Positions 2,325 through 57,542 of a stretch of DNA of 64,000 nt are shown here, piece after piece. Location: assembly GCA_965223505.1 (NCBI GenBank), contig CBDCWP010000044.1, positions 249,292 through 313,291 of the forward strand, given 5' to 3'. Each line of letters starts with the position of its first letter. Position 1 is the first letter of the stretch. The notes below the pieces were generated by a model. That model saw only the letters and a program-made list of their open reading frames with translations, was not told the origin of the DNA and searched no databases. The position numbers were made by a program, and so were the translations under genes. Origin of the DNA: Planctomycetota bacterium (GTDB lineage: Bacteria; Planctomycetota; PLA2; JAEUHO01).

Positions 2325-4979
2325 GTGGAAGAGTTGATGAGCCGATCGAGCGACCCCGTCGAAGTCGAGAGCCTGCTGTCGCATCGCCGCTGGATTCGTG
2401 GTCTGGCTCGATCGCTGCTTCGCGACGAGAACCTCGTCGACGACGTCGAACAGGAAACCTGGATGACGGCGATGCGCAGCCGGCCCGCTCAGGGCCCGCG
2501 CATCCGCGGGTGGCTTCGCCGGGTCGTACGCAGCCGCGCGATCGACCTGCGTCGGGCCCAAGCGCGACGCGAGTTGCGGGAGGAAGCCGTAGCCGCCCAG
2601 CGGCCTGCAGCCGCCGCGGCGCATCTCGTCGATCAGGCGGACATGCAACGCGCCGTCGCGCAGTCGGTGGGTGACTTGTCCGAGCCGTACCGCTCGACGG
2701 TTCTCTTGCGCTACTTCGAGGAACTCTCGCCGCGGGAGATCGCCGATCGACTCGACGTTCCCCAGGCGACCGTTCGAACGCGACTGCATCGAGCCCACGA
2801 GATGTTGCGCGTTCGGCTCGAATCCGAGTTCGGCGGCGGGCGCCGGGACTGGCGCGGCTCGCTCGCTCTGCTCGCCGTTCCGCCGTCGCGTTGGGCGACG
2901 CCCGCGGCAGCGGGGCTCTCTACGGGAGGGATCGTGATGACGTTCGTCCAGAAGTGTGTCGTGGTGGGGGCGCTGCTGCTGATCGGCGCGGCGCTCATCG
3001 GCTACGGCATCCATGAGTGGGACTTCGCGGAGGACAGCCACGATCTCGGCGAGGCGGATCGTGGTGGCGGCGCCGACGACCTGGATCCGGACGGTGCGGC
3101 GGCCCTGGAAGGCCGCAGCGACGGCGGCGAGCTGTCGGCCGGCGACGCCGGGGGCGACAACGCCGACCGCGGATCCCCCGCCACGGAACCCGCGCAGCGC
3201 ACCCCGGCGACGCATCTGCTTCGCGGCAGCGTTCGCGGCGTCGAGAAGAACGCAGTGGCCGAAACGAAGGTCGCGGTGTTCGTCCTTCGAGAGTACGGCT
3301 GGGTCGACACCGACATCGAGCCGTTCCGGGGTGAGGTGCGCGCGGACGGCAGCTACGAGGTGGACCTGTCCGGCGTGTTTCAGATGGAGAGCGTTCCGAA
3401 CAACCTCCGCGTTCGATTCGATCACCCCGACTACGTCGTGGCGAAGCCGACGCTCCTGACGAGCAGCGGCCGAACGAAGACCGGACGTCCTACGGAGTTT
3501 CGCGTCGATGTGACCCTGAAGCGCGCGACCGTGGTCGCGGGGCGCGTATTGCGGCCGGACGGCAATCCTGTCGTCGGCGGCACCGTCGCCCTGCTCGTGC
3601 GTCATGACGGGCGCTTCCGCTTGAACGACGTGCAGGAGCCGAAGGCCGCCGAGAAGTCGAAGACCGAAGCGGACGGTACGTTCCGTTTGCGAACGGACCG
3701 AACCGGCGAGTACGTGCTCGCGGCGCTCACGCAGGACCTCTTGCCGGCGAGCCGGATCATGGCGGTCGAGCACGGTGTCGCGCCGGACCCGGTCGAGATC
3801 GTCATGCAGGCGGGGCTCTCCATTCGCGGTCGTGTCATCGTCAACGGCAGGCCGGTCGCGGACGCGCAGGTCGAGGCCTACGCGCCCGACCCGGCGTTCG
3901 AGTTTCAGATCGACCACCACGACCTCGTATGGCGAGACGAGCGTCTCGTGCCGGGTGATCAGAAGGCGACGACCGACGCAACGGGCGCCTACGAGATCAA
4001 GGCGCTCGACGAGCCGTTGCGCCGGACGAAGGTCTCCAGGGTGAAAGGTCTCCCGATCTGGTATCCGTTGCTCGAGGCCAGCAAGCGCGTCGTCCAGCCC
4101 GGATCGGACGGCGTCGACTTCGAGATCGAAGGCGCGCACGTCGAGGTGCGCGTGCAATCCGGCGAGCAACGGCTCGAGGGCGCACGTGCCACCGTTCTCT
4201 CGCCCGGGAAGGAGCACGGCGATGCGTATCAACAGTCCGATGACGAAGGGCGTGTCCGCTTCATCCTGCCGCCGGATGCGGCGTTGAGGCTCTCGGTCTC
4301 TCACGAGGGCTACAAGACGGTCGAGCGCGAGTTCCGCACGCTGGGCGTTCGTACCCAGAGCGAGGAGATCGTGGATCTCGGTCCCTCGCTCTCCGGCACG
4401 CTCGTGCTGACGTTGCGTGATCCCAAGGGCAAGCCGATTCGCAATGCGGAGATCCGCGTTACGAAAGAAGATGACGGGTTCGGATTCGGTTTCAACGATC
4501 CCATGACGAGCGAGATCGGCGTATACCGCCTCGAGCATCTCGAGGTGGGGGAGTCCCTGCTGCTTGTGCGGCCGGGCCGGAAAGCGGGCCTGGAGTTTAC
4601 GAGCCACTTCCTGCCGATCCGCGAGCGGATCCAGCTCGACCTGGGCAAGGAGACGATGCTCAGTCTCACTGCCGAGCTCGGCGGGCGGTTGCGCGTGACC
4701 GTACGCGACGAAGCGGGACAGCTGATCGGCGCGAGCGCGACGCTGCGCGACGAGCGGGGGCAGAAGCGCCGCGTGATGTACGTGACGCAGGGCGAGGGGT
4801 TCGCGACGATGTCGTCGGGCGGGCCGGGTACGGCGAGTGTCAGTCGGGTCGAACCGGCGCTCGAGCCGGGCGAGTACCACATGGAGCTGTCGGCGAACGA
4901 CCGCGAGACGAAGCGCGTGAGCGTGACCGTGCGCGCCGGCGAGACCCACGACATCGAGGTCACGCTGCGCAAGCTGTAG
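2325..4979 (+). CDS. ECF sigma-70 factor fused to a TM helix and carboxypeptidase-regulatory-like (beta-sandwich) repeats
   Basis: Region 2 (DDVEQETW..GWLRRVVRSRAIDLRR) and region 4 (LRYFEELSPREIADRLDVPQATVRTRLHRA); hydrophobic segment VVVGALLLIGAALIGYGI; repeated GRV..PDGNPV / DG.F.L motifs. Confidence 0.88.
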   Translation: MEELMSRSSDPVEVESLLSHRRWIRGLARSLLRDENLVDDVEQETWMTAMRSRPAQGPRIRGWLRRVVRSRAIDLRRAQARRELREEAVAAQRPAAAAAHLVDQADMQRAVAQSVGDLSEPYRSTVLLRYFEELSPREIADRLDVPQATVRTRLHRAHEMLRVRLESEFGGGRRDWRGSLALLAVPPSRWATPAAAGLSTGGIVMTFVQKCVVVGALLLIGAALIGYGIHEWDFAEDSHDLGEADRGGGADDLDPDGAAALEGRSDGGELSAGDAGGDNADRGSPATEPAQRTPATHLLRGSVRGVEKNAVAETKVAVFVLREYGWVDTDIEPFRGEVRADGSYEVDLSGVFQMESVPNNLRVRFDHPDYVVAKPTLLTSSGRTKTGRPTEFRVDVTLKRATVVAGRVLRPDGNPVVGGTVALLVRHDGRFRLNDVQEPKAAEKSKTEADGTFRLRTDRTGEYVLAALTQDLLPASRIMAVEHGVAPDPVEIVMQAGLSIRGRVIVNGRPVADAQVEAYAPDPAFEFQIDHHDLVWRDERLVPGDQKATTDATGAYEIKALDEPLRRTKVSRVKGLPIWYPLLEASKRVVQPGSDGVDFEIEGAHVEVRVQSGEQRLEGARATVLSPGKEHGDAYQQSDDEGRVRFILPPDAALRLSVSHEGYKTVEREFRTLGVRTQSEEIVDLGPSLSGTLVLTLRDPKGKPIRNAEIRVTKEDDGFGFGFNDPMTSEIGVYRLEHLEVGESLLLVRPGRKAGLEFTSHFLPIRERIQLDLGKETMLSLTAELGGRLRVTVRDEAGQLIGASATLRDERGQKRRVMYVTQGEGFATMSSGGPGTASVSRVEPALEPGEYHMELSANDRETKRVSVTVRAGETHDIEVTLRKL

Positions 4980-25820: not shown

Positions 25821-26465
25821 GCGACCGTCACTCCCGGGAAAAAGGGGGTGGAGGGCGTCTCCCGACCGCCCCGCCAGCTCCGCCTTGTGAGCGGGTCCGA
25901 CTTTGCTCTGGGACTTACTTGCGGGGGGGACCGTTCACGGGACGTCTCATCGTCCGCCTTACACGCTCCTTAGCCGAGGCTGTTGCGCTTTTCTTATCCG
26001 ACCCCTGATATTACCTCCACAGGCTTACCACACCTTGGATCTACGAAAGCCGACGGCCCCTGTCAAGCCGGTAAGTCGCGCGGTACGGAGTCCGGACCGA
26101 TTCCGGACGTTTATTGCGGGAGTGCCTGAGGCAATACTCAAGGCTGATCTTCCCTGAGGATTGGTGAGGATTCCGACCGAGCAGAGGGCGATGCTTGCTC
26201 GCGGCCAACCAACCGACATTCGTGTCTTTCCAAGCCGGAACTTGGTCCCCCGAAACGAACATGCGGAGATCGTGCGGCCCACGCGCTGCTTGCTCCCAGG
26301 TCGCCTCATCAATCAGATCGGTCCGCACGCCAAGGTTGTCCATCTTTGATGCCGTTCGTACGACCTTGTCTCCCTCGACGAATAGGTGACCTGCGAAGGG
26401 CAGGAAACCGGTGTTGATAAGGCTCTCTCCTTTGGCTGGCCTATGTGCCAGGGAAAGGAAGAGAG

Positions 26466-27827
26466 ATGAACGACGATACGAAGGCGCCCGAGAGGTTGGA
26501 CGGCCCGCTTCCGAAGGGAGGCGGAGGCGACGAAGTCGCCGGAGCCGAGCGGAGGAAGCGGGCCGTGAGCGGCTACGTGCCCCGCGGCACACGCAGCCGT
26601 CGTGCGCGAACGGTGCGAAGCGACGCATCGCGTAGCGCGGAGTTCACGGGCGAGCAGCGCCTGTTGGCGCTTGACTGTTGGTTTCGCAGCGAGCTTGCGG
26701 CCACGGAGTTCGCGCCGCTGATCGGCGTGAGCACGGCGTCGCTGTACGCGTGGCGTCGCAAGTTCGAGGAGGAGGGCCCCGCCGGTTTGCTCGGGCACAA
26801 GCGCGGCATGAAGGGCAGCGGGCTGCCCGAGCCGGCGCGCCGTGCGATCCTGATGATGAAGGACGCGCATCCGGACTGGGGCCAGGATCGGATCCACGAC
26901 ATGCTGATCCGAACGGAGGGTATCTCGGTTTCAGGCGGCGCGGTTCAGCGCGTGCTGAAGGAAGCGGGCTACGAGGTGGAGGCGGTTGCGCCGGCGCGCA
27001 ACCCGCCCAAGGTGAAGCGATTCGAGCGCAAGCGACCGAACGAGCTTTGGCAAACGGATCTATTCACGTTTCTCCTGAAGCGCGAGCGTCGGCGCGTGCA
27101 CCTGGTTTGCTACCTGGACGACTTCTCGCGTTTCATCGTGGGCTTCGGGCTTCACGCATCGGCGTCGGGTGCGATGGTTCGGGAGACGTTCGAGCAGGCG
27201 ATCGCGAACTTCGGCGCGCCCGAGGAGATTTTGACCGACAACGGCGCGCAGTATCAGACCTGGCGCGGGAAGAGCTCGTTTCGCAAGCTTTGCGAGAAGC
27301 GCGGCATCAAGCAGATCGTGGCCAGGCCGAGGCGGCCGCAGACGCTTGGCAAGATCGAGCGTTTCTGGGGCACGCTGTTTCGCGAGCTGATCGACGGAGC
27401 GATCTTCCGCGGCATGGAGGACGCCAAGACGCGCATTGCCCACTTCATCGGCTTCTACAACTTCCAGCGCACCCACCAGGGCATTGGCGGCCTGGTTCCA
27501 GCGGACCGATTCTTCGAAGCCTCGCAGAGCGTGCGCAGCGCCCTGCAGGAGGCGGTTGCAACGAACGCCAAGGAGTTGGCGCTTCACGGTGAGCCGCGCA
27601 AGCCCTTGTACCTGGCGGGTCGAATCGGCGACGAGCCGGTGTCGCTTCACGCCGAGGGCGACAAGGTGCTGTTGACGGACAAGGACGGCGTTCGCGAAGA
27701 GGTCGACTTGCGGGCATCGGGCAAGCGCAAGGATGCGGCCAAGGAGGGGCCGGGCGAGAGCGTGCTCGACGACGTGCTCGAGGAGCTCAAGGCCCTTGAC
27801 GAGGCGCCCACGAAGGAGCAGGAGTAA
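26466..27827 (+). CDS. IS481-like DDE transposase (HTH + rve integrase core), ORF1
   Basis: HPDWGQDRI; RFERKRPNELWQTD, ILTDNGAQY, PQTLGKIERFW, YNFQRTHQGIGG; RBS before ATG 26,466. Confidence 0.92.
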   Translation: MNDDTKAPERLDGPLPKGGGGDEVAGAERRKRAVSGYVPRGTRSRRARTVRSDASRSAEFTGEQRLLALDCWFRSELAATEFAPLIGVSTASLYAWRRKFEEEGPAGLLGHKRGMKGSGLPEPARRAILMMKDAHPDWGQDRIHDMLIRTEGISVSGGAVQRVLKEAGYEVEAVAPARNPPKVKRFERKRPNELWQTDLFTFLLKRERRRVHLVCYLDDFSRFIVGFGLHASASGAMVRETFEQAIANFGAPEEILTDNGAQYQTWRGKSSFRKLCEKRGIKQIVARPRRPQTLGKIERFWGTLFRELIDGAIFRGMEDAKTRIAHFIGFYNFQRTHQGIGGLVPADRFFEASQSVRSALQEAVATNAKELALHGEPRKPLYLAGRIGDEPVSLHAEGDKVLLTDKDGVREEVDLRASGKRKDAAKEGPGESVLDDVLEELKALDEAPTKEQE

Positions 27828-28333
27828 TGCCTACGAAGAAGAAGAACGTGACGACGATCACGGCGAGCAAGACGTCGCGCAAGCACGTGGCAGTGATATT
27901 GGAAGCGCTCTCAGGCGAGATCGGCACGAGCGAGGCGGCTGAGCAGATGGGCGTGTCGCTCTCGCGCTACTACCAGCTCGAAGGCCGTGCTTTGAAGGGC
28001 ATGCTGCGGGCGATGGAGCCGAAGAAGCGCGGCATCCAGAAGACGCCGCAGCGCGAGATATTGGCGCTGAAGGCCGAGAAACAGCACCTGGAGAAGGAGC
28101 TTCGGCGGCACCAGTCCCTGCTTCGTGCGGCCAATCGAAGCCTGGGGCTGGCGCGCGGCGGGCGCAAGCAGGCATCCTCGAAGAAGGGCCGCAGCGCCAA
28201 GCGCGGCCACCGCGGCAAGACGGTGCTGAAGACGCTGCGCACGGGCCTTGAAGAGAAAGGAAACGGCGATGGGACGGCGAAGCGAGATGCCGACGCTGGT
28301 GGCGCGCACGTCGGCGAGCGAGACGGCGCGTGA
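27827..28333 (+). CDS. Small HTH + coiled-coil protein, ORF2
   Basis: ILEALSGEIGTSEAAEQMGVSLSRYYQLE; TAATG coupling with ORF1. Confidence 0.85.
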   Translation: MPTKKKNVTTITASKTSRKHVAVILEALSGEIGTSEAAEQMGVSLSRYYQLEGRALKGMLRAMEPKKRGIQKTPQREILALKAEKQHLEKELRRHQSLLRAANRSLGLARGGRKQASSKKGRSAKRGHRGKTVLKTLRTGLEEKGNGDGTAKRDADAGGAHVGERDGA

Positions 28334-28664
28334 GCGCGTGAAGGTGATTCTGCTCACGCTTGGCCGGCAGTGGAGCGTTGGCGATGCGTGCGAGCGTTTG
28401 GGCATCGGCCGAACGCGCTTCCAGGATCTTCGACGTAGGTTCTTGCAGGCCGGCGTTGAGGCGCTTGAAGGCGGCGCTTGTGGCCGGCCGCGCGCCGTGC
28501 TGCCTGACGACGATCATGAGCTTGAGCGCGAGGTGTCGAAGCTACGGCACCGAGTGCGCGTGGTGCGAACGCAGGTGGACATCTTCGATTGCGGGCTTGG
28601 CGAGGCGCCGCGGGTTCGGCACGCGCTGCATGTGGCGCACCAGGGAGGATGGAGGCAGGGATGA
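28269..28664 (+). CDS. Small HTH protein, ORF3
   Basis: VILLTLGRQWSVGDACERLGIGRTRFQDLRRR..GRPR; overlaps ORF2. Confidence 0.8.
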   Translation: MGRRSEMPTLVARTSASETARERVKVILLTLGRQWSVGDACERLGIGRTRFQDLRRRFLQAGVEALEGGACGRPRAVLPDDDHELEREVSKLRHRVRVVRTQVDIFDCGLGEAPRVRHALHVAHQGGWRQG

Positions 28665-29767
28665 GCGAGAGGATGTCGTACGAGGAGCAGGTGAAGTTCC
28701 GGCTTCAGGCCGTGGAGGTGATGCGGCGAAGTGGCTGGGACAAGGAAACACGCGCCTACCTGGCGCGAGTCCTTGGCGTGGCCGAGCGAACGATCAGGCG
28801 GTGGGAGCTTCGCGTTCGCCAGGGCAAGCCGGTGTACGAGAAGCGTGGCCGCAAGGCCGATGACGTACCACGAGCGAAGCGGCAGAAGGTGCTGCGTGCG
28901 ATGTTCGAGCTCGGGCCGTTCTCGGGTGTGACCGTACTTCGGGGAATGTTCAGCGACGTGCCGTATCGAGTGCTCTCAGAGATGAAGAGGCGCCTGCTAC
29001 GGGTGGCGCTGCGTCGATGGCGCTGGTATCGGAGGCGGCTAAAGTGGGTTCGTGCCGGGGCGGTGTGGGCGGCGGACTTCACCAGGCCCAAGGCTGGCCT
29101 GTGGCAGGGCAAGGATCGACTGTTCCTGGTTCGCGATCTCGGAAGCGGAGCGCAGCTGGCGGCCGTAGCCTGCCGGGGCGAGAAGACGAAGACTGTGTGC
29201 GCGGCGCTGCTCGCATTGATCACGCTGTTCGGAGCGCCGCTCATTCTGAAGAAGGACAACGCCGGCGCATTTCGCTCGGAACAGACGGCCGCGTTGCTCG
29301 AGGAGCACGGCATCACGCCACTCACGTCGCCGCCGTACACGCCCGCCTACAACGGCGCGTGCGAGCGCAGCGGCGGGAACTTCAAGCGACGTGTACAGCA
29401 CATCGCGCAGATGGAAGGACATCCCCGCATCTGGCTACCTCAAAACCTCGACGACGCCTTGCTCGTTGCGAATACGACGGCGAGGCCATGGGGTGCGACC
29501 GGGCCCACGCCGGCGGAGGCCCTCGAAGACCGCCGGCCCATCACGAGGCAAGAGAGAACGGCATTCGCGCACGATCTGAAGATCGAGACCGATGCCGCGC
29601 TCAAGACATTCAAGGAAAGAAACGCTAGAATGCCGACGTGCATCGAGCGCGCGTCAATCGACCGCAGCGCGACGCAGAGAACGCTCTGCAAGCACGGCTA
29701 TCTACAGTTCCGGAGAGGGCGTTTATCAACACTAGTTTCCGCTTGGCGGAGGCGGCCTAACGCGTAG
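28661..29767 (+). CDS. Second DDE integrase-core transposase, ORF4
   Basis: N-terminal HTH (LARVLGVAERTIRRW); WAADFT, LKKDNAGAF, PAYNGACER; ATGA coupling with ORF3. Confidence 0.88.
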   Translation: MSERMSYEEQVKFRLQAVEVMRRSGWDKETRAYLARVLGVAERTIRRWELRVRQGKPVYEKRGRKADDVPRAKRQKVLRAMFELGPFSGVTVLRGMFSDVPYRVLSEMKRRLLRVALRRWRWYRRRLKWVRAGAVWAADFTRPKAGLWQGKDRLFLVRDLGSGAQLAAVACRGEKTKTVCAALLALITLFGAPLILKKDNAGAFRSEQTAALLEEHGITPLTSPPYTPAYNGACERSGGNFKRRVQHIAQMEGHPRIWLPQNLDDALLVANTTARPWGATGPTPAEALEDRRPITRQERTAFAHDLKIETDAALKTFKERNARMPTCIERASIDRSATQRTLCKHGYLQFRRGRLSTLVSAWRRRPNA

Positions 29768-29838
29768 GGGACACAACGACACCCAGCCGTCGAAAAACCC
29801 CTGCGACGCCCGTCTCACTAGATCACAATCAAGTAACG

Positions 29839-36859: not shown

Positions 36860-38257
36860 GGCAGAGCAACGTTCTTTCTGTAAATCGCTGAGCGGTTGAT
36901 CAAGCGTCGTCCCTCGGCAAGTACCTCCGTCCGGTTTCCCATTCCTCGCTGATCTCGATGAGCACCGCGCTTGCGAGCCGCAGCAAGGACGCTTCGTTCG
37001 GAAACAATCCGGCGACGCGAGTGCGGCGGCGGATCTGCTGATTCAGGTTCTCGAGGCTGTTGGTGGTGCGAAGGCGCTTGCGCTGCGCTTCGTTCAGGCC
37101 GAGATCGAACACGGTGAAGCCCTGCGGAATGTTCTCTTCGGCCCAGCGCGCCAGGTCGGGCGCGGGCTTGTCCCACTTCTTCACGAAGGCCTTGAGCTTC
37201 TCTTCGGCCTCGCGACGCGACGTCGCATTGAACGCGGCGCGAAGGTCAGCGGCAACGTCGCGTCGAAGCTTCTGGCGCGGAACGTAGCTCTGCGCGTTCT
37301 GCTGCAGGTGGAACTGGCAGCGCTGCCAGGCCACGCCGGCGAACCGCGCCGCCAGCGCGGCCGCAATGCCCTTGTGGCCGTCGCTGGTGATGAGCTCGAC
37401 GCCGTGAAGGCCGCGATCCTGGAGAGAAGCGAGGAACTCGCGCCAATGGACCTCGGCCTCCGAGAGGCTCACGCTCGTTCCCAGCACGCTGCGCTTGCCG
37501 TGAGAATCGACGCCGATGGCGATCAGCACAGCGCAGTCGCGCACCGATCCGCCGTGGCGCACCTTCTCGTAGCGAGCGTCGAGTACGAGGTACTTGAACG
37601 CGCCGAGCGGACGTGTGCGCCAGCGCTCGAGCTCCTCGTCGAGCAGCGCAGCTGCTCGAGACACGCTCGTGGAGCTGATCTCCAGGCCGTTGCAAAGCAC
37701 CTTCGTGATCGCCTCGACACGCCGCGTCGAGACGCCCTGGACGTACATCTCCGCCAGGGCCAGCGTGAGCGCTCTCTCGCTTCGCTGGCCGCGTTCGAGG
37801 CTGGAGGGGTAGAACGTGTCGCCGCCCTCGACGTCGCGAACCTGGGGCACCTGGACGTCGATCTCGCCCAAGCGGGTTCTGACGCGCTTGCGCTTGAAGC
37901 CGTTGGCGTAGCCGCGGCGCTGATCCGTGCGTTCGTGGGGCTCGGCGCCGAGGAAGGCACTGCGTTCGACCTTCATGGCCTCGTTCACCAGCACCCGCAT
38001 CGCCTCAGCCATGCCGTCGAACCCGTTCTCGCTGAGCGCTTCCAGTGCGTCGCCCCAAGGCGTACGCTGTTCGTGGTGGGTCACGTCGTTCCTCCTTTGC
38101 GTGGTGTCGTTACCTGCAAAGGTACGGCGTTGATCCGCCACTCAGTTCGCCCCGGGAGATGGCGGCGCGCCCGCTTCGCTTGAATCAGCTAGCTGATTCA
38201 AGCGAAGCGAGCGCCTCTCCTCCGGGGAGCCATTTACAGAAAGAACGGTACACCCTC
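36860..38257 (-). mobile_element. IS256-family element, copy A, with 8-bp TSD GAAAGAGG
   Basis: 26-bp imperfect IRs sharing CGTTCTTTCTGTAAAT; GAAAGAGG at 36,852-59 and 38,258-65. Confidence 0.95.
36900..38084 (-). CDS. IS256-family transposase
   Basis: EMYVQGVSTRRV, LDARYEKVR, ITSDGHKG, QRCQFH, RTTNSLENLN. Confidence 0.95.
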   Translation of the reverse strand: MTHHEQRTPWGDALEALSENGFDGMAEAMRVLVNEAMKVERSAFLGAEPHERTDQRRGYANGFKRKRVRTRLGEIDVQVPQVRDVEGGDTFYPSSLERGQRSERALTLALAEMYVQGVSTRRVEAITKVLCNGLEISSTSVSRAAALLDEELERWRTRPLGAFKYLVLDARYEKVRHGGSVRDCAVLIAIGVDSHGKRSVLGTSVSLSEAEVHWREFLASLQDRGLHGVELITSDGHKGIAAALAARFAGVAWQRCQFHLQQNAQSYVPRQKLRRDVAADLRAAFNATSRREAEEKLKAFVKKWDKPAPDLARWAEENIPQGFTVFDLGLNEAQRKRLRTTNSLENLNQQIRRRTRVAGLFPNEASLLRLASAVLIEISEEWETGRRYLPRDDA

Positions 38258-45963: not shown

Positions 45964-47360
45964 GAGGGTGTACCGTTCTTTCTGTAAATGGCTCCCGAGA
46001 GAGAGGCGCTCGCTTCGCTTGAATCAGCTAGCTGATTCAAGCGAAGCGGGCGCGCCGCCATCTCCCGGGGTCAACTGAGTGGCGGATCAACGCCGTACCT
46101 TTGCAGGTCTACGACAACTTGCATTGGAGATCGACGTGACCCACCACGAACAGCGTACGCCGTGGGCCGACGCCCTGGAAGCGCTCAGCGAGAGCGGATT
46201 CGACGGCATGGCCGAGGCGATGCGAGTGCTGATCAACGAGTCCATGAGAATCGAACGCAGTGCCTTCCTCGGCGCTGAACCGCACGAGCGCAGCGAGCAG
46301 CGTCGCGGGTACGCCAACGGGTTCAAGCCCAAGCGCGTTCGCACGCGCCTAGGCGAGATCGACGTACAGGTGCCTCAGGTGCGCGACGTCGAGGGCGGCG
46401 ATGCGTTTTACCCATCGAGCCTTGAACGCGGCCAGCGAAGCGAGAGAGCGCTCACGCTGGCTTTGGCGGAGATGTACGTCCAGGGTGTTTCGACGCGCCG
46501 TGTCGAGGAGATTACGAAGGTGCTTTGCAACGGCCTTGAAATCAGCTCCACGAGCGTGTCGCGAGCAGCTGCGCTGCTCGATGAGGAGCTTTCGCGTTGG
46601 CGCACACGGCCGCTCGGGGCATTCAAGTACCTCGTGCTCGATGCCCGCTACGAGAAGGTGCGCCACGGCGGATCGGTGCGCGACTGCGCGCTGCTCATCG
46701 CCATCGGCATCGGCCACGACGGCAGGCGCAGCGTGCTGGGAACGAGCGTGAGCCTTTCGGAAGCCGAGGTTCACTGGCGCGAGTTCCTCAGCTCGCTCCA
46801 GGACCGCGGACTGCATGGCGTCGAGCTCATCACCAGCGACGGCCACAAGGGCTTGGCCGCCGCGCTCGCTGCCCGCTTCGCCGGCGTCGCCTGGCAGCGC
46901 TGCCAGTTCCACCTGCAGCAGAACGCACAAGCTTACGTGCCGCGTCAGAAGCTTCGACGCGACGTCGCCGCTGATCTTCGCGCCGCGTTCAACGCGACGT
47001 CGCGGCGCGAGGCTCAAGAGAAGCTCGAGGCCTTCGTAAAGAAGTGGGACAAGCCCGCGCCCGACTTGGCGCGTTGGGCCGAGGAGAACATCTCGCAGGG
47101 ATTCACCGTGTTCGACCATGGCCTCAACGAGGCGCAACGCAAGCGCCTGCGCACCACCAACAGCCTCGAAAACCTGAATCAACAGATCCGGCGGCGCACG
47201 CGTGTTGCCGGACTCTTTCCAAACGAAGCGTCCTTGCTGCGGCTTGCGAGCGCGGTGCTCATCGAGATCAGCGAGGAATGGGAAACCGGACGGAGGTACT
47301 TGCCGAGGGACGACGCTTGATCAACCGCTCAGCGATTTACAGAAAGAACGTTGCTCTGCC
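45964..47360 (+). mobile_element. IS256-family element, copy B, with 8-bp TSD GATCGACA
   Basis: Same IRs as copy A; GATCGACA at 45,956-63 and 47,361-68. Confidence 0.95.
46136..47320 (+). CDS. IS256-family transposase
   Basis: Same motifs as copy A with some substitutions; GGAG RBS before GTG. Confidence 0.95.
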   Translation: MTHHEQRTPWADALEALSESGFDGMAEAMRVLINESMRIERSAFLGAEPHERSEQRRGYANGFKPKRVRTRLGEIDVQVPQVRDVEGGDAFYPSSLERGQRSERALTLALAEMYVQGVSTRRVEEITKVLCNGLEISSTSVSRAAALLDEELSRWRTRPLGAFKYLVLDARYEKVRHGGSVRDCALLIAIGIGHDGRRSVLGTSVSLSEAEVHWREFLSSLQDRGLHGVELITSDGHKGLAAALAARFAGVAWQRCQFHLQQNAQAYVPRQKLRRDVAADLRAAFNATSRREAQEKLEAFVKKWDKPAPDLARWAEENISQGFTVFDHGLNEAQRKRLRTTNSLENLNQQIRRRTRVAGLFPNEASLLRLASAVLIEISEEWETGRRYLPRDDA

Positions 47361-49354
47361 GATCGACACGGCTGGACGCGTGAGCCTTATCCGGGCAACC
47401 CTCGCGACACGATCTGTACTGTCATTTGCCCCGGGTACGGGACCTATTCTGGACCTTGGCCGGGCTACGGACTTCTCGAACTCAAGCGCACCCGGGTGCT
47501 AGGTGTTGAATTGCGAACCAACCTCAACGAACCCCTTCCAGGTGCGACTATTGAGTACCGTGCCGCTGCTGGACCACACCCTCCAGCATTCACAACTCGA
47601 ACTGGGGCGAATGGCAATGCGCGGATCCAAGCGTTTGCAAGCGACAGTGGCGGGTTCTTCTGGATCACGGGCGATGGGATTGCTTCGGTAGATACTGATG
47701 TTCCGGACAGCCTGCGTGAACCAGGTCCAGTTGTGCTATGGACAAGCCCAGGTGTGACCTTTTCGGGCCAACTACTTGATCACGATGGCCAGCCGATCGT
47801 GGGTGCGCTGCTGGCGGGCACGGTGTGGCATCGCGGCCCCTGGACGCGAACCAACGCCGATGGGCGTTTCAAGTTGGTGGGACTCTCACACGGCGAGCGG
47901 GTGACAGTCCGCCTTCCAGAACAAACGCGTTCCTCGCCGACCCAGTGGACATATGCGCTTCCTCACGGGGAATCAGCGGTTCTGCGACCATCAGGACTAC
48001 TGAGTAGAGGGAGCAAGACGAAACCTCTGTACGTCTCAATCACTACCGGAGATGGCCGACCGGCGTCAGCAGTCGTTACAGCATGGCGGCTCAAGGATGG
48101 AATGTGTGGAGCCTCCGCGACTGGGCACCACGGGGTCAAGCCCGGTGATGCCCACAAGCTCCATCTCCCGGATGGGGAATACCTACTCACCGTTGACGGA
48201 GCGCCGGGAGGTCACGAGTCGGTGCGCACGACCGTTGAGCTAAGGGGACGTCGCAGGGAGCTCGAACTCAGGCTTGGACCGTTCCCCTTCTGGCGGGTGA
48301 AACGACTGGTGCTGCCGCCAGACCAGTCTGCCTACCTGGCTACAGCGCAGCACGTTCGAGAGGTAACGGCCGAACTCGCGGCGGGGGCAATCAGAGCGCC
48401 GACCGGTGAGCCGACGTCCATCTACGTGCAGGCAGACGTTCACGACGACACCGTTGCTCCCCGAACCTACACCCACCTTCCGTTCTCGCCTCCCGTAATC
48501 GGCGATCCTCCTGTGCGGGTCGCTCCGCTGGCAGAGATGCCGCTTGACGTCAGACTGCTTGACGGGGAAGGCCGCCCTACTGAGGGCAAACTCCGCTGGG
48601 AGCCTCTCGCTGGATACGTGTTCCCAGACACGGGGCCCGAGTGGCAGAGTCGTGACGGGCTACTCTCGCTTGGGGTTCCCAGATGGCCTGGCATCACGCT
48701 ATCTGTAGTCCCGACAAACACCACGCTGGTCCCATGCATGAGAACACTCGCATGGCCGACGTCAGGAGACGACTCATCGGACGATGCAAACGTTGTTCAA
48801 CTGGCGACAAGAGTGTCCAACGCGGTTGAGTTGCACCTTCCGAGCGGCGTGGCCATTGAGGAGGTGGAATTTCGGGTTGTCTCACCCGCGGGCGTGATTC
48901 GATCCGTCGATCCGGACGACCTCGTCAGCGGACAGTTCCCGTGGCCGCTTGGCGGTTCAGTCCTTTCCGCGCGAACTGACGGGCATGCACCGCTGTATTC
49001 GCGGCTCGCGCCGCGAGGGCCGTGGACGGTTCGCTGGCCATCCGGATCGCTGGAGATAGAGCTGCCGGCGCACGTTCGCCTGCTCAGTAGCGTCGCGATA
49101 GTCGGAGGCCACAGGCTAACGTTCCAAGATGGCGCCGTCGCCATTGGTGGCCTAGAACCTGGATCCTATGAGGTGTTGATCTACTCCGACGACGGGACCG
49201 GCCTTCTTACCACCGTAGCTCTCGCCAAGGGGGAGGCGCGAGTGATCGCGGTACCCGACACGCGATTACGCTAGCACCAGCACCTCGATCGGCCAGCCGC
49301 TAGAGTTTGCGGTGACTACGCTGATTGGCGCCCCCGCAGCCCCCCTTGCACTTG

Positions 49355-50836
49355 TGTAGCGGCCCACGAGATTTGACAACGAGGAGAAGGCCATTTCTTC
49401 GGGCCGATCTTTGACCCCCTTGTACCGGCCCAAGACCTTTGACAGTTGGCCACAAACGCCTGACTTCTGGGCTTTGCACCCGCCCCCTCGTGCGCCGATA
49501 GATTCCCGCGATGCACGAGGCCCTGATCCTGATCGCCCGCGCCATCGCGCTCGCTCACGACCACTGGCGCCGAACGATCGGTCGGCGCCGTCCGCTATCG
49601 GGCAAGATCGCCGTGCTCGAGGAGAGGGTCGAGCGGATCGAAGCCGAAAACGGACTCCTTCGCGCACGCTTTGCCCGCGTTGCGTCCCGCCGACGCCCGC
49701 ACTACCGCCCGCATGAGCGCCTCGAGATCCTGTGGCACGCCGCGCGATATCGCATGTCCGTGACGCGCACGGCCACGGCGTTCGGAATCACACGGCAGAC
49801 GATTCTGAACTGGAGGCGCTTGTCGCGCCGGAAAGACCCGCGGCTGCTACCGCGAATCGGAACGCTCACGGATCTCGTCATTGAACTGGCCCACAGGATG
49901 AAGCGCGAGTGGCCGCGTTGGGGTACGCGGCGCATCGCCGGAGAGCTGGCTCGGCTCGGCGTGGAGGCGTCGCGCTCGAGTGTGCAGCGCATCCTGTGCA
50001 AGCCGATGTCGCCCGCTCCCGAGAACCGACTCGTAACCCAGGCCGCGCCGGGCCTCCTGGCCAGGCGACCCAACCACGTCTGGATGATCGACTTCACGCG
50101 GCTCAAAGGTGTCGTGAAGCCGATGTTTGTGGGCGCGGTCATCGACGCCTACTCCCGCAGGGTGCTCGCGGTCGGCGTCATCGGTGGCGAGCCCAACGGC
50201 AGCTTCGCGACGCGACTGCTTCGGCGCGCGATCCGATGCCACGGCGCGCCGACGTGGCTCGTCTCGGACAAGGACCGCGCGCTTCGCAACAAGCTCGTGA
50301 ACGCCCTGCTTCGGCGCTTCGCAATCCGCCGCCGCTACGGCGCCGTCGGCAAGAAGGGCTCGATCTCGATGATCGAACGATTCTGGCGTTCGATGAAGCA
50401 GGAGTACGTGCGTGGCCTCTTCCTCTACCGCTCGACCGCCGCCATCGAGACGAAGCTTCGTCGCTACGCCCGTTGGTTCAACCACGAGCGTCCGCACCAG
50501 GGACTCGGACAGCGAACGCCCGACGACGCGTACTTCGAGCGACCAGAGCAACCGACCCGCAATCTGACTGACGGCACGTTGCACGTTCGGTTCCTCGATG
50601 GAGATCGACGCCTTCCCGTTCTGCGTCTTCGCCACGCGGCTTAATTCTCACGTGATCACACCAATGGCCGGGCCAGAAGTCCGTGCACACGTCTGCGCTG
50701 GAACGTCAGCGGCACGGAGTCAGCTCGAATAACGGCTCGAAACGACCCGCCAAGACTGTTGGGCCCCTACAGGGGGTCAAAGATCGGCCCGAAGAAATGG
50801 CCTTCTCCTCGTTGTCAAATCTCGTGGGCCGCTACA
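49355..50836 (+). mobile_element. IS with 66-bp perfect TIRs (TGTAGCGGCCCACGAG...) encoding an integrase-core transposase
   Basis: 49,355-49,420 is the exact reverse complement of 50,771-50,836; no TSD seen. Confidence 0.9.
49511..50644 (+). CDS. DDE integrase-core (IS481/IS3-like) transposase
   Basis: PRWGTRRIAGEL, PNHVWMIDFT, LVSDKD, IERFWRSMKQE, NHERPHQGLG. Confidence 0.9.
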   Translation: MHEALILIARAIALAHDHWRRTIGRRRPLSGKIAVLEERVERIEAENGLLRARFARVASRRRPHYRPHERLEILWHAARYRMSVTRTATAFGITRQTILNWRRLSRRKDPRLLPRIGTLTDLVIELAHRMKREWPRWGTRRIAGELARLGVEASRSSVQRILCKPMSPAPENRLVTQAAPGLLARRPNHVWMIDFTRLKGVVKPMFVGAVIDAYSRRVLAVGVIGGEPNGSFATRLLRRAIRCHGAPTWLVSDKDRALRNKLVNALLRRFAIRRRYGAVGKKGSISMIERFWRSMKQEYVRGLFLYRSTAAIETKLRRYARWFNHERPHQGLGQRTPDDAYFERPEQPTRNLTDGTLHVRFLDGDRRLPVLRLRHAA

Positions 50837-50842
50837 GAGCTG

Positions 50843-52580: not shown

Positions 52581-54135
52581 CTACTGCTCAGAAGGCGCTA
52601 GCCGCGCTGGCGCCTTCTTGTCCGCTAGCCCGAGGCCCTCGTTCTTATCCAGAAGCTGTGGGCCGGCGGGGGCATACCAACTACTCCCCGGGTACACAAA
52701 CCAGTTCATCGACCCAGTCTCCGGATCGGGCGTTGGTGATGGCCCGCCAGTACCCATAGCTTGACCGGAAGTTCCGAATGTGATGATCAGAGTGCTGCTG
52801 ATGGTGTCGCTCGTTCGGCCGGTCGTGAGGTCGTCGCCGTCCTCTTTTTTGAAGTTCATGTTCATCGTGATTGTCTTCTGGCCGTCCGCCCCGGAAGGCT
52901 TCAGCTTCCTCAGCAGACCGCCCAGCAAGTCGTACGGCGCATCTGGGGATGGGGCACCGCCATCGTGGATCCTCAAAGTAGACGCGCTCGAGACGAACGT
53001 CGGCCAGACTGCCAAGAACTGGTCCTCAAACTTCTGTTCCGAGGTCGTCGGGTGGTCCGGGGCCTCGCGTCGTGTAGCCAAGTATTCGCGGATCGTCGCC
53101 ATGTAGTCCGGTTCTTCCGGGTATGCGGCTACGAACACGACGGGAAGGCTGTCTTTGCCATAAGCCTCCCGCATCTCCTTGGGGCCACGCAGGGCACCAT
53201 CGTCCTTCCAGCCCCTGTATTCGTTACTGAGCATGCCTTTCTCCGCCACCATCAGATGCAACTCGTAGTTCTTGCCGCCGACCGTTACCTCTTCCTTCCC
53301 CCTTCGTTGGTAGCGCGCCCGACCGTCGATTCCGCGCCATGACAGAGAAATGGCCTCTTCGTGAGCCTTCAAGGCGTCGAGAGAGAGTTCGAGACGCCAT
53401 AGCGCTTTCTCGATGTCGCCCTCTGCTTCCGCGATCTTTCGCTCCAGCTCAGCGGTCGGCTGGCCGGAACGCCTGGCATCTCGTAGTTGGGTTCTAAGCT
53501 CATTGAGTGTCGTGATTGCGCGAGCGAGAGCGCGCCTCCTGGCCTCCATTTCTCTGACGAGCTTCATGAACCTGTGGACCTCTTTGTCAAGTTGCTCTTT
53601 CTCTCTGTCCCTGGTCGGGTCCCTTGGCTCAACCGATTTGTTGAGGTCCCCTGGTTGATCCTCAGGCAGCGGCGGTGGGGCCATGAGGATATCCCCTTCC
53701 CAGTCTGCTTCCGTTGGCGGAACCAGGCCAGGTTGAGTCTGTCCCTCACCGAGCGCCGTCAACTGTGCCTGAATACGAATGAGTTCGTCCTGGAGCCGAT
53801 CGGCCTCTTCGAGGCTCCCGGCGCCCAGAGCGGCGTTCTTCAGTTCTGACTCGATGTCGCGAAGCAGTGCGATCATCTCGCCCTCTGTTAGGTGCGGCTC
53901 ACCGTTGGCTTCAAGCTCCTCGTTAAGACTCTCAAAGTCGCGAGCCTCTCGAACCGCATCCCTAACGAAGCCTAGAAGTTCCTTTCGAGGCTCGCTCGCC
54001 TCTCGAGCCGCTCTGGGAAGGTCCGGATTCTCAAGTTCCTCGACCTTCCGCATCACCTTCATTAGCAGCTCGAGGGTCCTCTTGGCTTCCTCCTCCCCTC
54101 GCGGCGTCCTGCTTCGCAGCTCCTTCTCGAGGTTG
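52581..54135 (-). pseudogene. C-terminal part of a large coiled-coil protein cut by the dual-DDE element
   Basis: Frame stays open to the element boundary (NLEKELRSR..LLMKVMRK); coiled coils then a unique globular tail. Confidence 0.7.
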
Positions 54136-54141
54136 TGTCCC

Positions 54142-55248
54142 CTACGCGTTAGGCCGCGTCCGCCAAGCGGAAACTAGTGTTGATAAGCGCCCTCTCCGGA
54201 ACTGTAGATAGCCGTGCTTGCAGAGCGTTCTCTGCGTCGCGCTGCGGTCGATTGACGCGCGCTCGATGCACGTCGGCATTCTAGCGTTTCTTTCCTTGAA
54301 TGTCTTGAGCGCGGCATCGGTCTCGAACTTCAGATCGTGCTCAAATGCCGTTCTCTCTTGCCTCGTGATCGGCCGGCGGTCTTCAAGAGCCTCCGCCGGC
54401 GTCGGCCCAGTCGCACCCCATGGCCTCGCCGTCGTATTCGCAACGAGCAAGGCGTCGTCGAGGTTTTGAGGTAGCCAGATGCGGGGATGTCCTTCCATCT
54501 GCGCGATGTGCTGTACACGTCGCTTGAAGTTCCCGCCGCTGCGCTCGCACGCGCCGTTGTAGGCGGGCGTGTACGGCGGCGACGTGAGTGGCGTGATGCC
54601 GTGCTCCTCGAGCAACGCGGCCGTCTGTTCCGAGCGAAACGCGCCCGCGTTGTCCTTCTTCAGAATCAGCGGCGCTCCGAACAGCGTGATCAAAGCGAGC
54701 AGCGCCGCGCACACAGTCTTCGTCTTCTCGCCCCGGCAGGCTACGGCCGCCAGCTGCGCTCCGCTTCCGAGATCGCGAACCAGGAACAGTCGATCCTTGC
54801 CCTGCCACAGGCCAGCCTTGGGCCTGGTGAAGTCCGCCGCCCACACCGCCCCGGCACGAACCCACTTTAGCCGCCTCCGATACCAGCGCCATCGACGCAG
54901 CGCCACCCGTAGCAGGCGCCTCTTCATCTCTGAGAGCACTCGATACGGCACGTCGCTGAACATGCCCCGAAGTACGGTCACACCCGAGAACGGCCCGAGC
55001 TCGAACATCGCACGCAGCACCTTCTGCCGCTTCGCTCGTGGTACGTCATCGGCCTTGCGGCCACGCTTCTCGTACACCGGCTTGCCCTGGCGAACGCGAA
55101 GCTCCCAACGCCTGATCGTTCGCTCGGCCACGCCAAGGACTCGCGCCAGATAGGCGCGTGTTTCCTTGTCCCAGCCGCTTCGCCGCATCACCTCCACGGC
55201 CTGAAGCCGGAACTTCACCTGCTCCTCGTACGACATCTTCTCGCTCAT
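54142..55248 (-). CDS. Second DDE transposase, ORF4 (copy 2)
   Basis: Four amino-acid differences from copy 1; D-D-E intact. Confidence 0.88.
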   Translation of the reverse strand: MSEKMSYEEQVKFRLQAVEVMRRSGWDKETRAYLARVLGVAERTIRRWELRVRQGKPVYEKRGRKADDVPRAKRQKVLRAMFELGPFSGVTVLRGMFSDVPYRVLSEMKRRLLRVALRRWRWYRRRLKWVRAGAVWAADFTRPKAGLWQGKDRLFLVRDLGSGAQLAAVACRGEKTKTVCAALLALITLFGAPLILKKDNAGAFRSEQTAALLEEHGITPLTSPPYTPAYNGACERSGGNFKRRVQHIAQMEGHPRIWLPQNLDDALLVANTTARPWGATGPTPAEALEDRRPITRQERTAFEHDLKFETDAALKTFKERNARMPTCIERASIDRSATQRTLCKHGYLQFRRGRLSTLVSAWRTRPNA

Positions 55249-55640
55249 CGCTGCCTCCAACCTTCCTGGTGCGCCACATGCAGCGCGTGCCGAACCCGCG
55301 GCGCCTCGCCAAGCCCGCAATCGAAGATGTCCACCTGCGTGCGCACCACGCGCACTCGGTGCCGTAGCTTCGACACCTCGCGCTCAAGCTCATGATCGTC
55401 GTCAGGGAGCACCGATCGCGGCCGGCCACAAGCGCCGCCTTCAAGCGCCTCAACGCCGGCCTGCAGGAACCTACGTCGAAGATCCTGGAAGCGCGTTCGG
55501 CCGATCCCCAAACGCTCGCACGCATCGCCAACGCTCCACTGCCGGCCAAGCGTGAGCAGAATCACCTTCACGCGCTCACGCGCCGTCTCGCTCGCCGACG
55601 TGCGCGCCACCAGCGTCGGCATCTCGCTTCGCCGTCCCAT
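55245..55640 (-). CDS. Small HTH protein, ORF3 (copy 2)
   Basis: Near-identical to 28,269-28,664. Confidence 0.8.
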   Translation of the reverse strand: MGRRSEMPTLVARTSASETARERVKVILLTLGRQWSVGDACERLGIGRTRFQDLRRRFLQAGVEALEGGACGRPRSVLPDDDHELEREVSKLRHRVRVVRTQVDIFDCGLGEAPRVRHALHVAHQEGWRQR

Positions 55641-56082
55641 CGCCGTTTCCTTCCTCTTCAAGGCCCGTGCGCAGCGTCTTCAGCACCGTCTTGCCGCGGT
55701 GGCCGCGCTTGGCGCTGCGGCCCTTCTTCGAGGATGCCTGCTTGCGCCCGCCGCGCGCCAGCCCCAGGCTTCGATTGGCCGCCCGAAGCAAGGACTGGTG
55801 CCGCCGAAGCTCCTTCTCCAAGTGCTGTTTCTCGGCCTTCAACGCCAGAATCTCGCGTTCCGGCGTCTTCTGGATGCCGCGCTTCTTCGGCTCCATCGCC
55901 CGCAGCATGCCCTTCAAAGCACGGCCTTCGAGCTGGTAGTAGCGCGAGAGCGACACGCCCATTTGCTCAGCCGCCTCGCTCGTGCCGATCTCGCCTGAGA
56001 GCGCTTCCAATATCACTGCCACGTGCTTGCGCGACGTCTTGCTCGCCGTGATCGTCGTCACGTTCTTCTTCTTCGTAGGCAT
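55576..56082 (-). CDS. Small HTH + coiled-coil protein, ORF2 (copy 2)
   Basis: Near-identical to 27,827-28,333. Confidence 0.85.
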   Translation of the reverse strand: MPTKKKNVTTITASKTSRKHVAVILEALSGEIGTSEAAEQMGVSLSRYYQLEGRALKGMLRAMEPKKRGIQKTPEREILALKAEKQHLEKELRRHQSLLRAANRSLGLARGGRKQASSKKGRSAKRGHRGKTVLKTLRTGLEEEGNGDGTAKRDADAGGAHVGERDGA

Positions 56083-57443
56083 TACTCCTGCTCCTTCGTG
56101 GGCGCCTCGTCAAGGGCCTTGAGCTCCTCGAGCACGTCGTCGAGCACGCTCTCGCCGGGCCCCTCCTTGGCCGCATCCTTGCGCTTGCCCGATGCCCGTA
56201 GATCCACCTCCTCGCGAACGCCGTCCTTGTCCGTCAACAGCACCTTGTCGCCCTCGGCGTGAAGCGACACCGGCTCGTCGCCGATTCGGCCCGCCAGGTA
56301 CAAGGGCTTGCGCGGCTCACCATGAAGCGCCAACTCCTTGGCGTTCGTTGCAACCGCCTCTTGCAGAGCGCTGCGCACGCTCTGCGAGGCTTCGAAGAAT
56401 CGGTCCGCTGGAACCAGGCCGCCAATGCCCTGGTGGGTGCGCTGGAAGTTGTAGAACCCGATGAAGTGAGCAATGCGCGTCTTGGCGTCCTCCATGCCGC
56501 GGAAGATCGCTCCGTCGATCAGCTCGCGAAACAGCGTGCCCCAGAAACGCTCGATCTTGCCAAGCGTCTGCGGCCGCCTCGGCCTGGCCACGATCTGCTT
56601 GATGCCGCGCTTCTCGCAAAGCTTGCGAAACGAGCTCTTCCCGCGCCAGGTCTGATACTGCGCGCCGTTGTCGGTCAAAATCTCCTCGGGCGCGCCGAAG
56701 TTCGCGATCGCCTGCTCGAACGTCTCCCGAACCATCGCACCCGACGCCGATGCGTGAAGCCCGAAGCCCACGATGAAACGCGAGAAGTCGTCCAGGTAGC
56801 AAACCAGGTGCACGCGCCGACGCTCGCGCTTCAGGAGAAACGTGAATAGATCCGTTTGCCAAAGCTCGTTCGGTCGCTTGCGCTCGAATCGCTTCACCTT
56901 GGGCGGGTTGCGCGCCGGCGCAACCGCCTCCACCTCGTAGCCCGCTTCCTTCAGCACGCGCTGAACCGCGCCGCCTGAAACCGAGATACCCTCCGTTCGG
57001 ATCAGCATGTCGTGGATCCGATCCTGGCCCCAGTCCGGATGCGCGTCCTTCATCATCAGGATCGCACGGCGCGCCGGCTCGGGCAGCCCGCTGCCCTTCA
57101 TGCCGCGCTTGTGCCCGAGCAAACCGGCGGGGCCCTCCTCCTCGAACTTGCGACGCCACGCGTACAGCGACGCCGTGCTCACGCCGATCAGCGGCGCGAA
57201 CTCCGTGGCCGCAAGCTCGCTGCGAAACCAACAGTCAAGCGCCAACAGGCGCTGCTCGCCCGTGAACTCCGCGCTACGCGATGCGTCGCTTCGCACCGTT
57301 CGAGCACGACGGCTGCGTGTGCCGCGGGGCACGTAGCCGCTCACGGCCCGCTTCCTCCGCTCGGCTCCGGCGACTTCGTCGCCTCCGCCTCCCTTCGGAA
57401 GCGGGCCGTCCAACCTCTCGGGCGCCTTCGTATCGTCGTTCAT
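56082..57443 (-). CDS. IS481-like DDE transposase, ORF1 (copy 2)
   Basis: Protein identical to copy 1 in the ORF track. Confidence 0.92.
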   Translation of the reverse strand: MNDDTKAPERLDGPLPKGGGGDEVAGAERRKRAVSGYVPRGTRSRRARTVRSDASRSAEFTGEQRLLALDCWFRSELAATEFAPLIGVSTASLYAWRRKFEEEGPAGLLGHKRGMKGSGLPEPARRAILMMKDAHPDWGQDRIHDMLIRTEGISVSGGAVQRVLKEAGYEVEAVAPARNPPKVKRFERKRPNELWQTDLFTFLLKRERRRVHLVCYLDDFSRFIVGFGLHASASGAMVRETFEQAIANFGAPEEILTDNGAQYQTWRGKSSFRKLCEKRGIKQIVARPRRPQTLGKIERFWGTLFRELIDGAIFRGMEDAKTRIAHFIGFYNFQRTHQGIGGLVPADRFFEASQSVRSALQEAVATNAKELALHGEPRKPLYLAGRIGDEPVSLHAEGDKVLLTDKDGVREEVDLRASGKRKDAAKEGPGESVLDDVLEELKALDEAPTKEQE

Positions 57444-57542
57444 CTCTCTTCCTTTCCCTGGCACATAGGCCAGCCAAAGGAGAGAGCCTTATCAACACCG
57501 GTTTCCTGCCCTTCGCAGGTCACCTATTCGTCGAGGGAGACA

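Follow-up and report, generated by a model that had tools for sequence, protein, structure and literature searches.

Insertion sequences (IS) of the IS481 family, whose type element is IS481 of Bordetella pertussis, carry one transposase gene, are about 0.95 to 1.3 kb long and have TGT...ACA terminal inverted repeats; their insertion duplicates 4 to 15 bp of the target site. In the IS3 family, OrfA carries a helix-turn-helix (HTH) and a leucine zipper and is regulatory through the zipper, and the aspartate-aspartate-glutamate (DDE) enzyme OrfAB is made via a programmed −1 frameshift. To our knowledge, characterized DDE insertion sequences all use a single catalytic protein, sometimes together with an ATPase or a small regulator, and the only well-studied heteromeric transposase is that of Tn7, in which a DDE enzyme is combined with an unrelated nuclease. 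Here, we analyzed a stretch of 64,000 nucleotides from a Planctomycetota bacterium (contig CBDCWP010000044.1, positions 249,292 to 313,291; referred to as the window), which harbors two copies of an element with four genes between TGT...ACA ends. Two of these genes, ORF1 and ORF4, encode different predicted DDE enzymes. On balance, we favor the view that this is an autonomous IS of an apparently undescribed IS481-related group, in which both DDE enzymes share transposition and integration is unusual.

The unit moves as a whole between its TGT...ACA ends, each of which contains two conserved blocks. Comparison of the flanks of the genomic copies and reading of the sequence placed the limits of copy 1 at TGT (26367) and ACA (29775), within inverted-repeat arms of 3,418 nt and 98% identity that were detected in the window (26360 to 29777 and 54132 to 57549). 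Five full copies with 98 to 100% identity are present in the host genome (5.15 Mb, 44 contigs). Their limits are exact and common to all: identity starts at TGTCTCCC... on the left and stops at ...GGGGACACA on the right. The first-pass annotation, made from the window sequence, had described a 3,407-bp unit present twice; the two copies were found, but the true length, given by the TGT and ACA limits, is 2 bases more (3,409 bp). Furthermore, the host genome contains two fragments of the element, a left piece (query 1 to 1277) and a right piece (2621 to 3407). In the contigs from four sequencing runs, the element had a depth of approximately 23 to 28 and its flanks of approximately 5, a ratio that fits about five copies. 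In two cases, a pair of inverted copies shares a contig in the host genome, with a spacing of 24 kb in one pair and 12.5 kb in the other (contig C26). A distant relative with a 7.9-Mb genome also has five copies, which are 99.8 to 100% identical and have limits of the same kind. In one of the four runs (X4), a low-depth contig (2.7) connects position 29316 of the window back to 28024 via 12 other letters; it may represent a rearranged or partly duplicated element copy in the population.

The four genes (Table 1) are tightly packed and translationally coupled, as proposed in the first-pass annotation. ORF2 begins at the last base of the ORF1 stop codon (TAATG), ORF2 and ORF3 overlap by 65 nt, and the ORF3 stop overlaps the ORF4 start (ATGA). 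Overlaps of 4 nt between ORF1 and ORF2 and between ORF3 and ORF4 recur throughout the family. A GTG is present upstream of the ORF1 ATG, at 26445. Pfam analysis revealed HTH_28/HTH_32, rve (E = 3.4e-21) and rve_3 domains in ORF1, and an rve domain (3.1e-11) with a weak N-terminal HTH in ORF4. The motifs listed in the first-pass annotation are present in the translations (WQTD, TDNG and GKIER in ORF1; WAAD, KDNA and GACER in ORF4). The top NCBIfam model for ORF1 was IS481 (NF033577; 207.3 bits, E = 3.4e-61), just short of the cutoff of 224. For ORF4, the top model was IS3 (NF033516) with 70.3 bits, at a cutoff of 160, and the IS481 model gave 66.1 bits. The AlphaFold2 model of ORF4, based on 23 homologs, had a predicted local distance difference test (pLDDT) score of 84.9 and an integrase-type core; its top Foldseek matches in the PDB were retroviral integrases and TnsB, including TnsB strand-transfer complexes (E about 1e-9).

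ORF2 and ORF3 are small HTH proteins, in line with the original assignment, which is supported by Pfam (HTH_28 in ORF3 with 1.3e-8; weak in ORF2, 1.1e-3) and by the ORF2 model. They are paralogs according to hhalign (probability 99.3%, E = 3.4e-20). The same tool did not support ORF3 as a split-off piece of the ORF4 N terminus (probability 11.7%). The predicted complex of ORF3 and ORF4 scored 0.10 at a mark of 0.32, which counts neither for nor against binding. No ATPase domain was detected in ORF1 to ORF4 by Pfam, which matched solely HTH and rve-type domains, confirming the absence that had been noted from the translations.

Table 1. Coordinates of the element copies, genes and terminal regions in the window.
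Feature	Coordinates	Strand	Basis
Element copy 1, 3,409 bp, TGT...ACA termini	26367..29775	+	Identity limits among five full genomic copies
Left terminal region, ~65 bp: TGT-initial terminal block, then subterminal GGAAACCGGTGTTGATAA...CTCTCC, inverted again at right end	26367..26431	+	Family end profile
ORF1, 453 aa from ATG, IS481-like DDE transposase, HTH_28/HTH_32 + rve + rve_3, D198/D258/E298	26466..27827	+	Pfam, NCBIfam
ORF2, 168 aa, three-helix HTH, long helix (residues 74-106), basic tail	27827..28333	+	AlphaFold2 model, pLDDT 77
ORF3, 131 aa from ATG, HTH_28 protein, ORF2 paralog	28269..28664	+	Pfam, hhalign
ORF4, 368 aa, second, divergent DDE (rve) enzyme, D139/D199/E235	28661..29767	+	Pfam, alignment, AlphaFold2 model
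Right terminal region, ~65 bp, within last ORF4 codons, terminating ...GGGGACACA	29711..29775	+	Sequence, family end profile
Element copy 2, inverted, 98% identical, four ORFs all open	54134..57542	-	Repeat detection, sequence, genome search

A unit with two transposase genes could be a chance composite, in which an IS481-type element and a second IS (ORF2 to ORF4, or ORF4) are nested or adjacent and were copied together in this host genome only. The window is rich in other insertion sequences, and an internal 18-nt match to the left end is present at 27650 to 27667 (pair I6), which would suit such an origin. This match partly consists of bases outside the element; since they include such bases, the internal left-end matches of 18 to 21 nt (pairs I5 and I6) were taken as chance.

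The comparative data speak against a composite. ORF4 had 99 homologs in a protein collection clustered at 90%, mostly of about 368 aa and on contigs of 3.3 to 3.8 kb. Via ORF4 (alignment A1, 23 homologs), 80 related loci were found, all of them in records of metagenome-assembled genomes (MAGs). Most are labeled Planctomycetota; the other labels, which like all bin labels can err, are Gemmatimonadota, Acidobacteriota, NC10, Myxococcota, Thermodesulfobacteriota, Verrucomicrobiota, Betaproteobacteria, Chloroflexota and Actinomycetota. A check suggested by the first-pass annotation was whether the ORFs are always found together, in this order and between common ends. Indeed, in 59 of the 80 loci, ORF1, ORF2, ORF3 and ORF4 follow each other on a single strand, down to ORF4 identities of about 30% (tblastn), and they do so inside ends that are conserved in the family. 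The remaining 21 loci comprise 6 without detectable ORF2 or ORF3, one with ORF3 and ORF4 only (L077), one deletion product (L085) and 13 with ORF4 alone. In 10 of these 13, the right end lies directly behind an N-terminally truncated ORF4, and we read the ORF4-only loci as truncated right-end relics, not as ORF4 elements with their own ends. None of the scanned loci held a standalone ORF4 element bounded by its own pair of ends. In many genomes, there are only C-terminal ORF4 fragments followed by the right end (e.g., G264, G162, G190 and G197; L045, L048, L069 and L070). These loci were found via ORF4; the host genome has one right-end and one left-end relic.

We also surveyed 300 other Planctomycetota genomes with an ORF1 search (E ≤ 1e-40) and an ORF4 profile. 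Outside the host genome, 34 ORF1-like places were found, 26 of which have an ORF4-like gene downstream; the rest are three contig edges, four rows (three loci) with decayed copies and one intact single-gene element. At 13 of the 34 places, ORF1 identity was at least 54%. ORF4 is located 0.85 to 2.7 kb downstream on the same strand in 11 of them, and the other two run off the contig end, one with ORF2 before the edge. The 21 weaker places mostly showed 35 to 50% identity, with three short fragments at 56 to 62%. In 15 of these, an ORF4-like gene lies approximately 550 to 670 nt downstream, and a single gene between the two matches both the ORF2 and the ORF3 profile. The others are one contig edge, four rows (three loci) of frameshifted relics and the intact single-gene element (G163, 35% identity). 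Hence, the outcome that had been named as refuting a joint element, namely, ORF1 and ORF4 homologs occurring as nested or tandem ISs, did not occur. Together with the same order and ends in MAGs labeled as many phyla, and with the lack of end-like sequences between the genes in 73 loci (see below), this already contradicts the chance composite, to which we assign a very small probability.

Four-gene relatives are 3.4 to 4.8 kb long and the three-gene variant 2.9 to 3.3 kb. The latter (loci L089 to L100 and L108 to L110) has TGT ends of similar style, an ORF1 of 35 to 50% identity and one HTH/long-helix gene between the DDE genes. Since this single gene matches both profiles, ORF2 and ORF3 probably arose via duplication inside the four-gene branch. 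Since the second enzyme is found in 26 of the 34 places, including the three-gene variant, the layout with two enzymes predates the four-gene form and is more widespread. As judged from these sequences, the conserved gene set consists of the DDE enzyme ORF1, one or two HTH/long-helix proteins and the very divergent predicted DDE enzyme ORF4. The family is large: in a search of 1.84 billion proteins, the ORF4 profile matched 911 clusters (50% identity) at E ≤ 1e-30, and for ORF1 at least 4,759 clusters (90%) passed E ≤ 1e-60 within the 8,000 scored candidates.

In two cases, elements under different labels are nearly identical. The element at L073:2917-6931, on a 2-Mb contig labeled Solirubrobacterales (Actinomycetota), shares 95.9% identity over 4,015 bp with that at L037:3082-7097, in a MAG labeled Planctomycetaceae, and the elements of L058 (labeled Betaproteobacteria) and L047 (labeled Gemmatimonadaceae) are 89.6% identical. 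Such similarity points to a recent transfer between phyla or, for short contigs, to mis-binning.

The ends are shared across the family as well. Alignment of 32 termini from 16 elements revealed a common structure of approximately 65 bp at both ends, with the terminal block TGTnnCCC...CGAAAT.TTTGCC and the subterminal block ...AATAGGTAGAGGAAT..CCTCCTCC. The left terminal region of the window element agrees with the family end profile from model position 1. Its right end overlies the last ORF4 codons, the TAG stop of ORF4 being 8 nt before the right terminus. All 31 full copies start with TGT and terminate with ACA. The profile of the 32 ends matched in 73 of the 88 scanned loci, on the plus strand upstream of ORF1 and on the minus strand directly after ORF4; in these 73 loci, no match was found between the genes. 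At L031:2686-2824, a left-type and a right-type end of approximately 70 nt each abut head to tail with a 1-nt spacer (...ACA-N-TGT..., minus strand), 320 nt upstream of another copy. This was the sole case in the 88 loci. It resembles what a circle or tandem junction would leave behind, or an insertion beside the end of another copy, and is a weak hint at end-to-end joints or end targeting.

A DDE triad in an integrase-type core was found in ORF1 and in ORF4. For ORF4, at least 95% of 37 sequences retain each of D139, D199 and E235, which are invariant in the 23 sequences of alignment A1. For ORF1 (38 sequences), conservation is at least 95% at D198 and D258 and at least 80% at E298. The ratio of nonsynonymous to synonymous substitutions (dN/dS; Nei-Gojobori) was computed for 10 element pairs, 8 of which gave values and 2 did not. 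It ranged from 0.06 to 0.35 for ORF1, from 0.10 to 0.42 for ORF2, from 0.07 to 0.52 for ORF3 and from 0.21 to 0.47 for ORF4 (five pairs; some ORF4 starts are over-extended, which may inflate its values). We conclude that all four genes are under purifying selection.

A target-site duplication, searched as a flush direct repeat of 4 to 80 nt with at least 80% identity, was present in none of the 31 full copies with both flanks. When exact flush matches of 1 to 12 nt were tested, 20 copies had none (0 bp), and the match was 1 bp in 7, 2 bp in 3 and 3 bp in 1. The missing duplications are not explained by decay, because the 31 copies include the five near-identical ones of the 7.9-Mb relative. 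By-eye reading of three three-gene elements likewise revealed no duplication. A Pfam scan of the frames abutting the ends revealed three genes that are clearly interrupted at the junction: Transposase_mut from model position 204 (window copy 2), rve from position 34 (L073) and BPD_transp_1 from position 90 (L059). In none of the three was the missing half of the gene found on the opposite flank. At window copy 2, the adjoining IS256-type (Transposase_mut) element (57543 to 58161) is cut at the position that matches 46743 of an intact copy, and its missing 614 nt are not on the opposite side. Together, the lack of duplications and of the other gene halves points to an integration that differs from the usual concerted staggered attack. 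It may take place at broken DNA or entail a loss of target DNA.

Other features of the flanks were considered. A palindromic target was rejected, since flank symmetry amounted to 3.65 matches in the first 12 nt versus 3.21 in mismatched controls; a pyrimidine beside the ends, present in 50 of 62 flanks, was the only flank signal. Inversion between copies was addressed by pairing flanks across copies. This gave 4-nt matches of ACCT (copy 1 left with copy 2 right) and CCGA (in the five-copy relative) and none for the other flank pairs, too few to tell from chance. Candidate open frames spanning the element-free junction were obtained, but no continuous domain across the separate halves was detected by Pfam.

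Elements of the IS3/IS481 kind are thought to use copy-out/paste-in transposition. According to PMC7780238, this pathway requires an asymmetric strand transfer, which joins the ends, and a symmetric one for integration. We propose that both DDE enzymes of the element are catalytically needed and would share this work: one enzyme would form the asymmetric end-to-end joint and the other would integrate, the likeliest split being that between ORF1 and ORF4. ORF2 and ORF3 would serve as end-binding adaptors or dosage regulators, like OrfA of the IS3 family. The heteromeric transpososome raised by the first-pass annotation, in which each enzyme would act on one end or at one step and the HTH proteins would be end-binding or regulatory subunits, would draw on the co-conservation of the genes, the intact catalytic residues of both enzymes and the purifying selection. 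In its boldest form, it would mean that two catalytically active DDE enzymes split steps, ends or strands and integrate without target-site duplication, often losing target DNA, which would make this widespread group the first natural transposase system with two DDE enzymes in prokaryotes; this we offer only tentatively.

Several points temper this view of a division of labor. We infer, rather than observe, the activity of ORF1 and ORF4, their joint need and their contact. In the contigs of the four runs, which drop rare forms, neither a circle junction nor an empty site was found, which we count neither for nor against. Left and right ends differ consistently across the family, and this asymmetry was considered as a sign of end-specific enzymes. 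It was rejected as such, since the difference is at least partly due to the ORF4 stop and last codons falling in the right end. The informative interrupted flanking genes number only three. Moreover, according to a 2024 mBio paper (PMC11708052), an IS481-family element with a single gene was directly observed to insert without duplication in Pseudomonas fluorescens SBW25, at the joint of a large rearrangement. Given that precedent, the missing duplication need not depend on a second enzyme. Finally, the two DDE genes evolve differently. ORF1 is by far the slower of the two to diverge (mean pairwise identity of 57% versus 38% for ORF4), and among 16 deeply diverged elements the pairwise identities of ORF3 and ORF4 correlate strongly (r = 0.76) and those of ORF1 and ORF4 weakly (r = 0.31; Mantel test, reached by 13 of 2,000 permutations).

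The slow ORF1 and its weak co-divergence with ORF4 would also fit a main enzyme with a faster-evolving accessory protein. One enzyme, most likely ORF1, would then do all the chemistry, ORF2 and ORF3 would be regulators, and ORF4 would be a conserved accessory, e.g., an inhibitor, a target-choice or immunity factor or an end-binding protein, making the element an IS481-type IS with a fixed regulatory module. That ORF1 is near the IS481 cutoff (207.3 of 224 bits) and ORF4 far below all IS family cutoffs (best 70) is in line with this. However, at least 95% of sequences retain the ORF4 triad, even where identity falls to about 30%, which speaks against an accessory role, since an inhibitor or DNA binder would not need it. 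In addition, ORF4 is predicted to fold as an integrase-type core (pLDDT 84.9), and it is ORF4, not ORF1, that terminates inside the right end. We therefore regard a single active enzyme as possible but doubtful, and retain shared transposition by ORF1 and ORF4 as our working model.

The surroundings of the element in the window are those of an IS-rich variable region. The 24 kb between the inverted copies (29776 to 54133) contain several paralogous CarboxypepD_reg-domain proteins, an FGE-sulfatase-type gene, a protein kinase, an ankyrin-repeat protein and two IS256-type elements (36860 to 38091 and 46129 to 47360). An IS4/5-type fragment is present at 25119. An ordinary single-gene IS (HTH_23, rve, rve_3; 377 aa) with 73-nt inverted repeats of 96% identity also lies between the copies (49348 to 50843) and provides a useful contrast to the four-gene element.

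Could the architecture be real but already catalogued, e.g., among multi-ORF IS481-family or unclassified ISfinder entries? Some ORF1 homologs are named "IS481 family transposase" by their sources. Otherwise, the names are generic ("DDE-type integrase/transposase/recombinase," "InsO family," "IS481 family"), all related loci are MAG records, and in 72,556 plasmid records ORF4 had no match at 1e-5 and ORF1 matched only distant IS481/IS3 transposases with at most 33% identity. A full-text literature search, which did not cover ISfinder and TnCentral entries, turned up no IS with two DDE enzymes. This agrees with the earlier statement that no named family of this kind was known, and we consider prior cataloguing unlikely; the group is apparently undescribed. 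Its apparent absence from cultured strains and plasmid collections (80 of 80 loci are MAGs, which a curated database of mainly isolate sequences could have missed) may explain the oversight. A co-inherited pair of DDE enzymes with intact active sites is a natural system for studying how transposition steps can be divided between paralogous enzymes, and a compact 3.4-kb element with defined ends makes this directly testable. The consistent lack of duplications bears on how ISs land in broken DNA and drive rearrangements.

Compared to known systems, the element is closest to the IS481 family. ORF1 has the same HTH, rve and rve_3 layout and IS481 as its top model, and the element has the TGT...ACA inverted-repeat termini of the family. 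It differs in that ORF1 falls narrowly below the family model cutoff and shares no more than 33% identity with the plasmid-borne annotated IS481-family transposases, and in that the element has four (or three) genes, including a second DDE gene, and a length of 2.9 to 4.8 kb. Duplications, seen in 0 of 31 copies, are another difference, one that is not absolute in view of the SBW25 event as described in PMC11708052. For the related eukaryotic IS481EU elements, a passage of PMC10045372 gives duplications of about 4, 15 or 25 bp. The resemblance to the IS3 family (e.g., IS911) lies in a small HTH/long-helix gene upstream of an rve DDE gene and in the best model of ORF4. In contrast to that family, there is no frameshift arrangement: ORF3 and ORF4 are coupled by ATGA, and ORF4 has its own conserved start and an N-terminal HTH. 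The element also lacks a 3- to 4-bp duplication and carries two complete DDE genes, and its relatives have ORF2 and ORF3 as separate genes.

The remaining systems are more distant. Tn7 depends on the ATPase TnsC and on target selectors, and it generates 5-bp duplications; its TnsA is a nuclease of the restriction-enzyme-like type rather than a DDE enzyme. The likeness would be that two different nucleases share breakage and joining, and the Foldseek matches of ORF4 include TnsB, but no TnsA-like or ATPase domain was detected in the element by Pfam. IS21, Mu, Tn552 and IS66 resemble it as multigene operons with accessory proteins. Their helpers are ATPases or non-DDE proteins, and IS66 has three genes with one DDE enzyme, whereas the extra large protein here is a second DDE enzyme. 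The element lacks the AAA+ ATPase that IS21, Mu and Tn552 pair with their DDE enzyme, and with the IS21 model (cutoff 160) ORF1 and ORF4 scored only 43 and 33 bits, respectively. The helpers that define IS66 are missing as well. PiggyMac and the PiggyMac-like proteins of Paramecium, a domesticated eukaryotic heteromeric machine in which most partners are catalytically dead, also combine paralogous DDE-type proteins; in contrast, the element is mobile and bacterial, and both triads are intact. The original designation as a new transposon class was too strong, since the element is linked to the IS481/IS3 supergroup by ORF1 and by its TGT ends. In summary, the element works like, and descends from, members of this supergroup.

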